Shown here piece after piece: positions 1 to 12,000 of a stretch of DNA of 64,000 nucleotides; position 1 is the first letter of the stretch, and the number at the start of each line of letters is the position of its first letter. The stretch lies in the IMG/VR virus record IMGVR_UViG_2718218360_000008; one strand, given 5' to 3'. The position numbers were made by a program. Source of the stretch: a virus. Taxonomy: Duplodnaviria; Heunggongvirae; Uroviricota; Caudoviricetes.

Positions 1-3000
1 GTGGCCTGGCTGGATGGTGTGGACACGCCATACATTGATCAGCAGGAAGGTTTCACCACTGACGGCATTGCCACAAAAATCCGTATTGATGCCGGAGTGG
101 CACCACTTGACTGGCGCGGGCTGGTGCGTTCGTCGGTGGCCTGATAACCGCGTTATCACAATCACTGCCCGAAAGGGCTTTTTTTATGCCTGAAAAACAG
201 CCCCACAGGGGCTGTCCGGAGAAACAGCATTATGGCGAAAAATTTTGTACAGGACGGTACCACCATTGAACTGGTGAATGCCGGAGATCAGACCATCCTG
301 AGCGGTGCTGCGGTGGTGGTCGGCAGTATGGTGGCCGTGGCCATTACCGATATTCCTGCCGGTGAGGCCGGTGACGGTTTTGCCGAAGGCGTGTTCCTGC
401 TGCCCAAACAGTCTGCTGACGACATTCAGTCCGGCGCGGTGGTTTATCTGAAGGACGGGGTTGTGCAGCTGGCTGCAGACGGTGCGGTGGCAGCGGGGGT
501 AGCCTGGGAAAATGCCCCTGCAAACAGCGCCACTGTGGCGGTAAAATCAATGTCTGATCTGTTTACGCGAATGTGTTGCCGGATGGACGTGGCGACCGTT
601 CGGGTGATGGGCAAACAGGCGGAGATTAACGGCGTCGTGTACGACGTGATGCCGGAGGAAGAGTCCGCGGAGATGGGGGCGCTTTCGGGCAGCCAGTTGT
701 CACTGGTGGTGTTTTCAGCCCGGTACCGTCCGGCCCGTCATGATGTTGTTGTGTTTGCGGGGCGCACACTGACGGTGACCCGTTATGACACGTACAACGG
801 TAAACCCCGGATTTTTGTCGAACAGGAATGAGTATGGCAATAAAAGGTCTGGCGCAGGCCATGAAAAATCTGGATGCAATTGATCGCCGTGCCGTTCCCC
901 GGGCCTCTGCCACGACACTGAACCGAGTGGCGGGGGCCATTATTGCGAAAACGGCCTCTTCAGTTGCCAGGGAGCTGGCCGTTCCCCGTCGTCTTATCCG
1001 TGCCCGCATCCGGTTAAGTCCGGCACGACCGGATAAGGTTTACGCAAAGGTTTACATCAATACCGGCAACCTGCCCGCCATCAAACTGGGGGAGGCCCGC
1101 GTTCGACTTTCCCGCAGAAAACGGAGAAAGAAAGGACAGCGTGCGGCCCTGAAAGGGGGCGGCAGTGTGCTGATTGTGGGGAAAAGACGGATCCCGGACG
1201 CCTTTATCACCCGGCTGGCTAACGGACGCTGGCATGTGATGCAGCGTATGCCGTGGGCATCATCATCCACCGGCGCGGACAGCAAAGGGAGGCCGAAACG
1301 CCACCGTCTGCCGATCGAAGTGGTGAAGATTACGACTGCCGGACCGCTGGCAGAAACCTTTGAACGTGAACGGGACCGGATGTACCGGGAAAAATTACCG
1401 GCGCAGATGATGAAAGCCATGACGCATCAGTTACGCCTGGTGCTGAAAAGAAAATGACTGGGAGGGTGTATGAAACACCGTGAAATACGGGCGGCAGTTC
1501 TGTCTGCCCTGAAAGACAATATTTCTGAGAGGGTGAGCTGGTTTGACGGTCGCCCGGTTTTTATTGATGAACAGGAACTGCCTGCTGTTGCTGTTTACCT
1601 GACAGATGCGTCTGCTGCTGACGAGTTCGTTGATGAGGGAACCTGGGAGGCGACACTGCATATTGAGGTTTTTCTCAGGGCAAAAGAACCGGACTCGGCA
1701 CTGGATATGTGGATGGAAGAAAAAATTCTTCCTGCGCTGGAGGCAGTTCCCGGGCTCAGTGCATTACTGCTGAAGATGAATCTTCAGGGGTATGACTACC
1801 GCCGGGATGATGAGTTTATGATGTGGGGATCGGCAGATCTCCTGTGGAAAATTACCTACGAGATGTGAGGACGATATGGCAACACCAAATCCCCTTGAGC
1901 CGGTAAAAGGTGCCGGTACCACTCTGTGGGTTTACAACGGCAAGGGTGATGCTTATGCAAACCCGTTGTCAGACGATGACTGGCAGCGACTGGCTAAGGT
2001 GAAGGATCTGACGCCGGGCGAGATGACGGCAGAACCCTACGATGATAACTACCTGGATGATGAAGACGCGGACTGGACCGCGACCGGGCAGGGGCAGAAG
2101 TCTGCAGGAGATACCAGTTTTACGCTGGCCTGGAAACCGGGAGAAGAAGGTCAGAAAGGGCTTATAGGCTGGTTTGAAAGCGGGGATGTGCGGGCCTATA
2201 AAATCCGTTTCCCAAATGGCACGGTGGATGTGTTCCGTGGCTGGGTCAGCAGTATCGGTAAGGCCGTGACGGCGAAAGAAGTGATCACCCGCACGGTGAA
2301 AGTCACTAACGTGGGCAAACCTTCCGTGGCGGAAGAACGCAGCGAAATTACGCCGGCCACTGCAATTAAGGTGACACCGACATCCGGTACGGTGGCAAAA
2401 GGGAAAACAACCACCCTGACGGTTTCTTTTGAGCCGGAAAGTGCAACCGACAAGACGTTCAGAGCGGTTTCCGCCGATCCGTCGAAAGCCACCATTAGTG
2501 TGAAAGATATGACAATTACGGTAAACGGCGTGGCGACAGGTAAGGTGCAGATCCCTGTGGTGAGCGGAAATGGTCAGTTCGCCGCAGTGGCTGAAGTCAC
2601 CGTTACTGAAGCGGGCGCTGCAGGGTAAACGGAGGTAATACATGTTTCTGAAAACAGAACAATTTGAATATAACGGTGTGTCCGTCACGCTTTCCGAATT
2701 GTCTGCGCTGCAGCGGTTTGATTATATGAAGTTTGTTTCAGACGCAGAACAACAGAAGACAACGAAGCATGATGTCGTGCGCATTAACCAGCGATATCTG
2801 GAAACGGCATCCCTGCTTGTGGCGATGTCGCTATGGCATTCCCATTCCCTCAAAGGCACTCTGGCCTCTCCGGAGACAGAGATGCAGCAGATCCGCCGTG
2901 AAGTGATGCTGGGATGGCCTGCTGATGCACTGAATCAGGCAACGAACCGGGTGCTTTATCTTTCAGGTATGCTGGATAACCGGCACGATGCCGATCCTGA

Positions 3001-9000: not shown

Positions 9001-12000
9001 ATTGACCGCCTGCGGGTCACCTTCGGGGTGCAGTCACTGTTGGAGACCACCTCAAAGGGCGACCGTAATCCCTCTTCTGTCCGACTGCTGATTCAGTTGC
9101 AGCGTAACGGTAACTGGGTGACGGAAAAGGATGTCACCATTAACGGCAAGACCACCTCACAGTACCTGGCGTCGGTGATTCTGGAGAATCTGCCTCCCCG
9201 CCCCTTTAACATCCGGATGGTCAGGGAGACGGCGGACAGCACACGGACCAGCTGCAGAATAAGACGCTCTGGTCGTCATACACCGAAATCATCGATGTGA
9301 ACAGTGCTACCCGAACACGGCGATTGTGGGGCTGCAGGTGGATGCGGAGCAGTTTGGCGGTCAGCAGATGACGGTGAACTACCATATCCGCGGTCGCATC
9401 ATCCAGGTACCGTCAAACTATGACCCGGAAAAACGCAGTACAGCGGCATCTGGGACGGCAGCCTGAAACCGGCATACAGCAACAACCCGGCCTGGTGCCT
9501 GTGGGACATGCTGACTCACCCGCGCTACGGCATGGGAAAACGCCTGGGGGCGGCGGATGTGGACAAGTGGGCGCTGTATGCCATTGCGCAGTACTGCGAC
9601 CAGATGGTCCCTGATGGTTTCGGGGGCACAGAGCCGCGGATGACCTTTAATGCGTACCTGTCACAACAGCGTAAGGCGTGGGACGTTCTCAGTGATTTCT
9701 GCTCGGCGATGCGCTGTATGCCGGTATGGAACGGCCAGACGCTGACGTTCGTTCAGGACAGTCCGTCGGATGTGGTGTGGCCGTACACCAACAGTGATGT
9801 GGTGGTGGATGATAACGGCGTGGGGTTTCGCTACAGCTTCAGCGCCCTGAAGGACCGCCACACGGCGGTGGAGGTGAATTACACCGACCCGCAGAACGGC
9901 TGGCAGACCTCCACGGAACTGGTGGAAGACCCGGAAGCCATACTGCGCTACGGGCGCAACCTGCTGAAGATGGATGCGTTCGGCTGTACCAGTCGCGGTC
10001 AGGCCCACCGTGCCGGGCTGTGGGTGATAAAGACCGGACTGCTGGAAACGCAGACGGTGGATTTCACGCTCGGGTCACAGGGGCTGCGTCACACACCCGG
10101 TGACATTATTGAAATCTGTGATAACGACTATGCCGGGACCATGACCGGCGGACGTATCCTGTCCATCGATGCCGCCAGCCGCACCCTGACACTGGACCGT
10201 GAGGTGACCCTGCCGGAGACCGGTGCCGCCACGGTGAACCTGATTAACGGCAGCGGTAAGCCGGTGAGCGTGGCCATCACTGCACACCCCGCGCCGGACC
10301 GGATACAGGTCAGCACCCTGCCGGATGGCGTGGAGACATACGGTGTGTGGGGGCTCTCCCTGCCGTCACTGCGTCGTCGCCTGTTCCGCTGTGTCTCCAT
10401 CCGGGAAAACACGGACGGCACCTTTGCCATCACGGCAGTGCAGCACGTACCGGAAAAAGAAGCCATCGTGGATAACGGGGCGCACTTTGACGGCGACCAG
10501 AGCGGCACCCTGAACAGCGTCATCCCTCCGGCAGTGCAGCACCTGACGGTGGAGGTGAGTGCAGCTGACAGCCAGTATCTGGCGCAGGCGAAATGGGACA
10601 CGCCGCGGGTGGTGAAGGGCGTGCGCTTCAGTCTGCGCCTGACCAGTGGAAGCGGTCAGGACAGCCGTCTGGTGACCACCGCCATCACTGCGGATACAGA
10701 GCATCGTTTCAGTGGTCTGCCGCTCGGGGAATACACCCTGACAGTCAGGGCAATTAACAGTTATGGCCAGCAGGGGGAACCGGCCATCACCACCTTCCGG
10801 ATTAACGCGCCAGCAAAACCCGCCACCATTGAACTGACGCCGGGGTATTTTCAGATAACGGCGGTACCGGTGCTGGCGGTGTATGACCCGACGGTGCAGT
10901 TTGAGTTCTGGTTTTCGGAAAAACGCATCACGAACACGGCACAGGTGGAAAAATCTGCCCGTTATCTGGGGAGCGGCAGTCAGTGGACTGTCCAGGGAAG
11001 CCGGATTAAGCCGGGGACGGATTTCTGGTTTTACGTGCGCAGCGTCAACCTGGTGGGGAAATCTGCGTTTGTGGAAGTCAGCGGGCAGCCCAGCAATGAT
11101 GGTGAAGGGTATCTGGAATTTTTCCGGGAAAAAATAGGAAAACTGCATCTGGCTCAGGGGCTATGGGAGCTGATAGACAACAGCCAGCTTGCGGATGAGA
11201 TGGCGGAGATGAAGACCACCATCACGGAAACCCGCAATGAAATCACACAGACGGTCAGTAAAACGCTGGAGAACCAGAGCGCCACTATACAGCAGATACA
11301 GCGCGTGCAGAAGGACACAAATGATGACCTGGCTGCGCTGTACATGCTGAAGGTTCAAAAAACGAAAGACGGCATTCCCTATGTGGCCGGGATTGGTGCA
11401 GGGATTGAGGATACTGATGGCCAGCCACTGAGCAACATACTGCTGCTGGCTGACCGTATCGCGATGATAAATCCGGAGAGCGGCAACAGCACGCCGTTAT
11501 TTGTGGCGCAGGGGAATCAGCTGTTCATGAACGACGTGTTCCTGAAGCGACTGTTTGCGGTGAGTATCACCTCGTCCGGCAATCCCCCGACGTTTTCCCT
11601 GACGCCGGACGGGCGACTGACGGCGAAAAATGCGGATATCAGTGGCAGTGTGAATGCGAACTCAGGGACGCTCAACAACGTCACGATTAATGAGAACTGT
11701 CAGATTAAGGGGAAACTGTCAGCCAACCAGATTGAAGGCGATATTGTCAAAACGGTCAGCAAGTCTTTCCCCCGCACGAGCACTTATGCCAGTGGCACCA
11801 TCACGGTAAGAATCAGTGATGATCAGAAGTTTGACCGGCAGGTCATGATACCGCCAGTGTTATTCCGCGGTGGTAAGCATGAGAATTTCAACAGTAATAA
11901 CCAACAGTCATACTGGTATTCAACCTGCCGGTTAAGAGTGACCCGCAATGGTCAGGAGATTTTTAATCAGTCCACGACGGATGCTCAGGGCGTATTTTCC

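Follow-up and report, generated by a model that had tools for sequence, protein, structure and literature searches.

Do eight single-base deletions in one of two otherwise identical tail modules record the decay of a resident prophage, or do they reflect the way in which the sequence was assembled? The question is raised by a stretch of 64,000 nucleotides from an IMG/VR virus record (IMGVR_UViG_2718218360_000008), the whole of which is referred to here as the window. The window contains two tandem lambdoid prophages, A and B, located at ompW and of the E. coli O157 type. Their tail modules repeat each other exactly over at least 9.5 kb, with positions 1-9437 of copy A having their counterpart at 48566-58010 in copy B. 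Copy A reaches past the left end of the window and carries the 3' end of the capsid gene, DUF2190, an FII-like gene, Z, U, V, G, T, H, M, L, K, I, and the N-terminus of J. The main parts of the arrangement are listed below.

1..9551, + strand: copy A, head-tail connector and tail module, identical to copy B except for eight 1-bp deletions
9552..20375, + strand: copy-A-specific right arm (J C-terminus, lom, tail fibre genes, and cargo), from comparison with O157:H7 FRIK2455
20369..20494, + strand: ompW 3' fragment between the prophage A right arm and the prophage B integrase, an attP-like junction of tandem prophages
48566..58124, + strand: copy B, the corresponding module, matching the strain 143 prophage at every base with one exception, a deletion in H common to both copies

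The spacing of the two copies (48.57 kb) is close to one phage genome, and a concatemer or overrun artefact was considered. It was rejected because the right arms differ by 140 substitutions before homology is lost, because each arm matches a different independent genome, and because the junction contains an ompW fragment, as it does in O157:H7 YB14-1 (NZ_CP038284.1). Tandem prophages occupy ompW in that strain as well, with the same junction, the right arm carrying tail fibre and cargo genes, the partial ompW, and a second lambdoid integrase. However, the upstream prophage of YB14-1 and FRIK2455 has a different head/tail module (HK97-like or lambda-like), whereas the upstream prophage of the window has the tail module of its downstream neighbour, a mosaic that was not found elsewhere in the collections searched.

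The copies were compared by a MAFFT alignment of window positions 1-15435 with 48566-64000. Exactly eight gaps separate the identical segments and all of them are in copy A, as the original prediction had stated, and not one substitution distinguishes the copies within positions 1-9551 of A. That prediction had referred to all indels between the tail copies, which holds within the identical segment only. Homology of the copies continues to about 14548 (copy A coordinates), and this diverged stretch contains five further 1-bp indels (at 12169, 12190, 14470, 14483, and 14505), in both directions, together with the 140 substitutions. The G4/G5 site, previously placed at 8011-8014, is shifted by one base to 8012-8015. 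The eight sites are as follows.

543..546, + strand: A4 (A5 in copy B, at 49109-49113), in DUF2190, 11-15 nt before its stop; from the alignment, ORFs, and strain 143 annotation
3238..3243, + strand: T6 (T7 in copy B), within the T part of the G-T tail chaperone; from the alignment and strain 143 annotation
7117..7119, + strand: T3 (T4 in copy B), non-coding, in the 10 nt that separate the stop of L from the start of K; from the alignment and strain 143 annotation
8012..8015, + strand: G4 (G5 in copy B), in tail assembly gene I; from the alignment
8430..8432, + strand: G3 (G4 in copy B), close to the 3' end of I; from the alignment
9242..9242, + strand: a single C (CC in copy B), in gene J; from the alignment
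9300..9301, + strand: A2 (A3 in copy B), in gene J; from the alignment
9437..9438, + strand: a lone C absent between these two bases, in gene J; non-homopolymeric, the last of the deletions and within the crossover interval described below; from the alignment

Genes were assigned from the strain 143 annotation and the ORF lists of both copies. These bear out the earlier claim that seven of the deletions are coding and frameshift the DUF2190/FII pair, T, I, and J, and the site said to lie just before K does fall in the L-K spacer. The deletion at 543-546 joins DUF2190 to the next gene in a 199-aa DUF2190-FII fusion ORF (232-831). Gene I has two deletion sites and gene J has three; their net effect on J is -3, and the frame is regained after 9437, with stop codons intervening. 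As read, the sequence therefore has DUF2190/FII, T, I, and J frameshifted in copy A. The tape-measure gene H is frameshifted in both copies and the terminase, portal, and capsid genes of prophage B are shattered, which leaves the earlier picture of a broken A beside an intact B incomplete.

The eight deletions are very probably errors of consensus or polishing that were left uncorrected in the assembly rather than mutations that arose in the bacterium; their technical cause is one that we infer from the features considered here. The deletions all have the same polarity (8:0, sign test P=0.008) and six of the eight sites lie in runs of 3 or more (P=8e-4), the other two being non-homopolymeric. 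The ratio of indels to substitutions is 8:0 in 9.4 kb, in contrast to 5:140 in the truly diverged segment (Fisher P=2e-10). Bacterial mutation-accumulation studies have yielded 4-23 substitutions per indel (PMC6330053). Even at 4:1, the most indel-rich of these spectra, eight indels with no substitution have a probability of at most about 3e-6.

The original prediction had offered two readings, decay of copy A or systematic under-calling of homopolymers. The idea of a consensus error survives, with the lesions tied to the status of the segment as an exact repeat, but decay is disfavoured and the word systematic cannot be retained. Under-calling was not systematic: the segment contains 55 runs of 5 or more, of which just 3 were hit, two of the sites are not homopolymeric, and no private 1-bp indel emerged when 33.8 kb of unique sequence elsewhere in the window was compared with independent genomes. 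This unique sequence falls in two parts. Between 9438 and 20400 the window differs from FRIK2455 by two substitutions and no indels in 10,963 bases, where uniform decay would be expected to have left 9.3 indels (P=9e-5). Between 20376 and 43223, comparison with SCPM-O-B-7615 likewise revealed no private 1-bp indel, and a single 2-bp length difference at 39920 lies within a cluster of substitutions.

All eight deletions are located within the segment that is identical to copy B, the last at 9437 and the first copy-specific SNP at 9552. Genuine pseudogenisation would be expected to place lesions regardless of this identity, but the 10.9 kb of prophage A distinguishable from B contains none. Diagnostic SNPs also bracket the switch of copy A from one sequence type to the other.

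9410..9551, + strand: crossover interval of the copy-A mosaic, between the last B-type SNP (9409) and the first FRIK2455-type SNP (9552)

By sequence comparison, copy A is a private mosaic, B-like to 9409 and FRIK2455-like from 9552. B-type and FRIK2455-type SNPs distinguish the two at about 230 positions within 3600-9600, and A-specific SNPs cluster at 9552-9612 and 9760-9795. We found this exact mosaic in none of 5,426 complete E. coli genomes, nor in the protein collections. A search for the mosaic with intact alleles gave best DNA matches of 99.1% with 3 mismatches and no exact match, and the repaired mosaic J protein was not found in protein collections. The 172-nt repaired junction has exact matches in four IMG/VR contigs; these carry other J alleles, since their identity over the rest is only 94-98%. 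The deletions become denser near the crossover, with five of the eight within 1.4 kb of it (P about 0.01-0.02; KS P=0.02). An effect of read coverage at the centre of the repeat predicts the opposite gradient.

The alleles at the eight sites were sought in the 5,426 complete E. coli genomes by using diagnostic oligos with flanks of 21 bases or fewer, shuffled and alternately reverse-complemented. The long alleles of copy B are present in 4,324 of the genomes. In total, long alleles occupy 19,003 places and short alleles 8. Eight genomes carry a single short allele each, and no genome among the 5,426, none of which has the same mosaic prophage, carries more than one. Six of the eight short alleles are found in none of these genomes, and none contains an exact match to copy A. 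A 54-mer bearing the short allele of 9437 is absent from IMG/VR and from GTDB representative genomes, and four frameshift products tested, including the DUF2190-FII fusion, are absent among about 15 billion proteins. Intact I, intact J, and repaired H are present in the protein collections. That short alleles were not found more widely carries less weight than it might seem to, because no sister strain with the same mosaic prophage is present in the collections. Copy B has the strain 143 allele at each of the eight sites, and the agreement extends over 14.2 kb, the H site excepted. A paper on the FRIK strains (PMC7430833) does not mention the locus.

A second part of the window is also affected by 1-bp indels.

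43224..46923, + strand: error-dense zone in the terminase large subunit, portal, and capsid genes of prophage B, from comparison with two independent genomes

In this zone 17 deleted bases, 12 inserted bases, and several compensating pairs are found in the window alone. These at least 29 1-bp insertions and deletions are polarised to the window by the two independent genomes and are accompanied by almost no true substitutions. The head genes are broken into about 14 ORFs, with an indel density of about 8 per kb that peaks at 45.0-45.75 kb. We looked at this peak for a switch of nearest relative like that at the tail of errors in copy A and found none, nor any associated crossover. To judge from these alignments, the patchy indels of the window are technical noise.

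A mechanism for such errors has been described for the polishing of repeats, in which an indel in the draft of one copy causes reads to align to the clean copy, so that the error is left uncovered and unfixed (PMC8812927). In the window, reads from the exactly repeated tail modules would not be assignable to one copy, and if the draft of copy A contained indels where copy B was clean, reads would be drawn to B and the errors of A would stay uncorrected. Alternatively, the consensus of copy A may have been built from thin coverage. Either course would be expected to leave one copy with sparse 1-bp deletions, mostly in homopolymers, and with 0 substitutions, beside a clean sister copy and perfect unique flanks. 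What we found in copy A has this form: indels only, enriched in homopolymers and confined to the repeat, with the long allele present elsewhere and local noise in the same window.

This pattern closely resembles the indel errors in repeat copies of long-read and hybrid assemblies (Wick & Holt 2022, Polypolish, PMC8812927), which are also 1-bp, mostly homopolymeric, frameshifting deletions. With polishers that place each read only once, one instance of the repeat is hit while the other is error-free and the unique surroundings are clean. Certain features of the window differ from that failure mode. Two sites are non-homopolymeric, which counts to some extent against an artefact. Three of the eight sites (9242, 9300, and 9437) have copy-A-specific SNPs just 115-310 bp away, a distance at which read pairs from short-read data should have been placeable and should have corrected them. 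The deletions are crowded towards one end, and they fall 8:0 on one copy, an asymmetry that a simple model of reads drawn to the clean copy does not predict unless the draft of copy A was worse at the start. The second zone, in which insertions accompany deletions and the density is about 8 per kb, suggests patches of very thin or unpolished long-read consensus.

Real and very recent pseudogenisation, in which A was made identical to B by duplication or gene conversion and then acquired eight genuine deletions under relaxed selection, has precedent. Frameshift decay of prophages is common in O157 (PMC2669165), and at this very locus independent finished genomes have DUF1076 and DUF4765 annotated as frameshifted and, in FRIK2455, a tape measure with an internal stop. 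Small deletions outnumber insertions in E. coli (insertion:deletion 0.40; PMC6330053), and selection would not be expected to preserve a tail module that is redundant. We nevertheless consider this reading improbable. Decay should produce substitutions at least as frequently as indels and is disfavoured because the observed ratio is 8:0, because the deletions end exactly where identity to B ends, because no combination of the short alleles is present in any other genome or protein collection searched, and because the storm of indels in the supposedly intact prophage B indicates a locally poor consensus and hence technical noise elsewhere in the window. In addition, copy B gained none of the deletions.

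Another reading of the gradient towards the crossover is mutagenesis coupled to recombination, in which copying of the tail module from B to A, as a gene-conversion or break-induced-replication tract ending within 9410-9551, would have involved error-prone synthesis liable to -1 frameshifts and left deletions solely on the new copy, densest near the crossover. Pol IV has a -1 frameshift signature, and break-induced replication is frameshift-prone. Every lesion is on one copy and within the B-identical tract, the last is within the crossover interval itself, and the mosaic junction is private to this sequence. However, the density of about 1e-3 per base exceeds by orders of magnitude any in vivo rate measured for such repair, the noisy zone at 43.2-46.9 kb includes insertions and has no crossover, which points to a technical cause, and the gradient is explained equally well if contigs of poor terminal quality were joined at the crossover during assembly. 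This reading is less likely still than simple decay. Toggling of the tail genes by phase-variable homopolymer tracts (contingency loci) or by programmed frameshifting is scarcely credible. It is true that six of the eight sites are homopolymers and that the G-T region of lambdoid phages employs programmed frameshifting. However, the tracts are short (A5, T7, T4, G5, G4, and A3), two sites are not runs, and tract length is essentially invariant across the allele places in the complete genomes, which effectively refutes this reading. The T7 site was rejected as the G-T programmed frameshift, since it lies about 150 nt inside T, away from the slippery site at the end of G.

Defective prophages with real lesions are well documented in the O157:H7 pool of lambdoid prophages (Asadulghani et al. 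2009, PMC2669165), which resembles the window in its near-identical prophages, mosaicism, and inter-prophage recombination. Many frameshifts and stops in that pool are real, and some can be seen in the relatives considered here (DUF4765, DUF1076, and H of FRIK2455). Such defects are common to related strains and are accompanied by substitutions. In contrast, the deletions in the window are present in none of the other assemblies searched in any combination, occur without substitutions, and obey the repeat boundary.

At face value the window would portray a prophage A that is freshly decaying, with five broken tail genes, beside an intact prophage B, and both statements are probably wrong. If consensus error is the cause, the apparent decay of tail genes is probably an ordinary finding, and this stretch of assembly is unsuitable for calling pseudogenes, inferring prophage inducibility, or dating decay. 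The need for re-polishing is greater still in the terminase-portal-capsid region of prophage B (43.2-46.9 kb) than in copy A. The deletions would be biologically notable only in the unlikely event that they are both real and linked to recombination, in which case they would constitute a natural record of hypermutagenic break repair between resident prophages.

A ninth deletion, in H, is shared by the two copies, and was detected by comparison with outgroups.

4946..4947, + strand: a non-homopolymer T absent in H of copy A (GAAGC^CTGC)
53513..53514, + strand: the identical H deletion in copy B

The deletion splits H into ORFs of 539 and 291 aa. Its presence in both copies means that it may be real, an observation that runs counter to an artefact at this site. 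When the T is restored, the resulting protein is present verbatim on 71 contigs.

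A direct-repeat scan of the window identified a long segment that is present twice, about 48.57 kb apart. By comparison with annotated relatives, the repeat is the head-tail connector and tail module of a lambdoid, STEC-type prophage, with genes for DUF2190, an FII-like protein, Z, U, V, G, T, the tape measure H, M, L, K, I and J. Two lambdoid prophages, A and B, sit in tandem at ompW, and the order of right arm, partial ompW and integrase is also found in the finished O157:H7 genome YB14-1, which indicates that the tandem arrangement is real biology. The parts are as follows.

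1 to ~20375: right-hand part of prophage A
20369–20494: 3' fragment of ompW, between the right arm of prophage A and the integrase of prophage B
~20.4 kb to the window end at 64000: most of prophage B, with integrase followed by early, lysis, head, tail and tail fibre genes

Global alignment of 1–15435 with 48566–64000 places exactly eight 1-bp gaps, and no substitutions, in the tail module of prophage A (copy A, 1–9551) relative to that of prophage B (copy B). Within this segment, the alignment bears out the original prediction that every indel between the two is a 1-bp deletion in copy A. Seven sites lie where they were predicted (543–546, 3238–3243, 7117–7119, 8430–8432, 9242, 9300–9301 and 9437), and the G run is at 8012–8015 rather than 8011–8014. 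As also proposed, seven gaps are in coding sequence, breaking DUF2190/FII (with a resulting fusion ORF of 199 aa), T, I and J, with two gaps in I and three in J; 7117–7119 is in the L–K spacer. Homology between the copies extends on to ~14548, with 140 substitutions and five more 1-bp indels in both directions (12169, 12190, 14470, 14483 and 14505; 60741–63077 in B). Each allele of these five recurs in an independent genome, that of A in FRIK2455 and that of B in strain 143. Being corroborated on both sides, they are natural polymorphisms.

Left of 9409, copy A is identical to copy B and FRIK2455 is 1–9% diverged from it, while from 9552 copy A is identical to the ompW prophage of FRIK2455. 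This makes copy A a mosaic whose crossover falls between 9409 and 9552, an interval that includes the last deletion (9437). The mosaic, intact or broken, was not found in other genomes or protein collections, and the J protein implied by the 9410–9551 junction is in no other genome or protein collection searched. Either the tandem prophages recombined within the strain, or the assembly was joined chimerically at this junction.

The prophage of strain 143 (NZ_CP028607.1) matches copy B base for base at all eight sites and is identical to it over 14.2 kb, up to 62728, except at one site in H. Thus, copy A is derived at all eight sites, and H is derived in both copies. The exact-repeat segment contains eight indels and no substitutions, compared with five indels and 140 substitutions in the diverged segment (Fisher P=2e-10). 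Bacterial mutation-accumulation studies give 4–23 substitutions per small indel (PMC6330053), and even at a substitution:indel ratio of 4:1 the probability that all eight events would be indels is ~3e-6. Moreover, 9438–20400 has the same length as in O157:H7 strains FRIK2455, FRIK2533 and BB24-1, with two substitutions; at the repeat rate, 9.3 deletions are expected in the next 10.9 kb beyond the repeat and none is observed (P=9e-5). Mutations of a decaying prophage would have no reason to stop at the edge of identity to a paralogue, whereas a read-assignment problem would stop there.

Private indels per kb, by segment of the window
Prophage A, repeat (1–9437): 0.95
Prophage A, unique (9438–20375): 0
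Prophage B, early (20376–43223): 0
Prophage B, head (43224–46923): 7.8
Prophage B, 46924–62728: 0.06

The densest segment lies in the head genes of prophage B. A three-way alignment with strain 143 and SCPM-O-B-7615 (NZ_CP144926.1) reveals 17 deleted and 12 inserted bases in 43224–46923, all private to the window, and the private 'substitutions' there are mostly compensating insertion/deletion pairs. Both references have intact genes for the terminase large subunit, the portal and the ClpP-capsid fusion, which in the window are fragmented into ~14 ORFs. Indel density is bell-shaped, peaking at 45.0–45.75 kb, with no switch of nearest relative at the peak. We know of no natural process that yields ~8 indels per kb and virtually no substitutions. 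These indels are consensus noise, and the assembly is therefore locally poor; prophage B, which had been taken for intact, is not intact as sequenced. Between 20376 and 43223 there is no 1-bp indel relative to SCPM-O-B-7615, and only a handful of substitutions.

We also searched for the undeleted (long) and deleted (short) alleles in 5,426 complete E. coli genomes, using diagnostic oligos designed such that the BLAST seed must span the indel. Long alleles are present in 4,324 of these genomes, at 19,003 places. Short alleles occur in eight, with one short allele at a single place in each, and are limited to the T6, G4 and A4 homopolymers (3238–3243, 8012–8015 and 543–546). The eight genomes include NZ_CP015020.1 (28RC1), NZ_CP101310.1 (99-3311), NZ_CP024056.1 (SMN197SH3) and NZ_CP017249.1 (NADC 5570/86-24/6565), plus four more RefSeq complete genomes, and their short alleles may be homopolymer miscalls of this type in those assemblies or the product of recurrent slippage. 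The other six short alleles, including the deletion in H, are in none of the 5,426 genomes. Exact look-ups among about 15 billion proteins likewise did not recover the 199-aa DUF2190-FII fusion, the 539-aa H and 207-aa J N-terminal fragments, or the 113-aa I fragment, although these absences are from collections that lack a true sister strain carrying the copy A mosaic. In the same look-ups, intact I and J of copy B are present (50 blocks and 14 contigs, respectively), and H with a single T restored occurs verbatim in 71 contigs.

The original prediction allowed for either decay of copy A or homopolymer under-calling in one repeat copy; decay is very probably wrong, and a reading as error very probably right. 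The explanation with the best support is residual assembly error left in a long exact repeat, by a mechanism described in the Polypolish paper, where errors of this type are mostly homopolymer indels that frameshift genes (PMC8812927). Three features are not fully explained by assembly error: the 8:0 asymmetry between copies (sign test P=0.008), three deletions that persist within 115–310 bp of copy-specific SNPs, and the crowding of deletions towards the crossover (P about 0.01–0.02). The long reads may have been divided unequally between the two copies, or there may be an assembly join at 9410–9551 with poor contig-end quality.

Real recent decay of copy A is highly unlikely: the mutation spectrum and the restriction of the deletions to the repeat both contradict it, and so does the absence of corroborating sequences. 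If recombination had set off a burst of -1 frameshifts along a conversion tract, on the recipient copy, both the one-sidedness and the gradient would be accounted for. However, such a burst leaves the 45-kb zone unexplained and would need a per-base error rate far above any measured, to our knowledge, and we consider it still less probable. Phase variation or programmed frameshifting, excluded by tract lengths, positions and population invariance, has a probability close to nil. Read as assembly error, the eight deletions are a flag on assembly quality and not on biology.

Of all the lesions, only the one shared by both copies might be real. This ninth 1-bp deletion, of a T in a non-homopolymer context in H (4946 in A, 53513 in B), is evident relative to outgroups and splits H in both copies; in copy B it is surrounded by an otherwise flawless 15.8 kb. 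The chances are roughly even between a mutation that arose before the two modules were homogenised and a systematic error repeated identically in each copy.

The sole length difference from SCPM-O-B-7615 in 20376–43223 is a 2-bp insertion at 39920–39921, in the lysis/late region, with 16 substitutions within about 1 kb around it in an otherwise identical 23-kb stretch. It resembles a small patch of natural recombination. FRIK2455 carries only the first ompW prophage, after which come yciE and the trp operon. Strains differ wholly in the head and tail module of this upstream prophage, which is lambda-like in FRIK2455, HK97-like in YB14-1 and like that of prophage B in the window; the prophage's arm with the J C-terminus, lom, tail fibre and cargo genes is conserved. 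Both finished genomes carry frameshift annotations for the cargo genes DUF4765 and DUF1076, which are real pseudogenes common to FRIK2455 and YB14-1.
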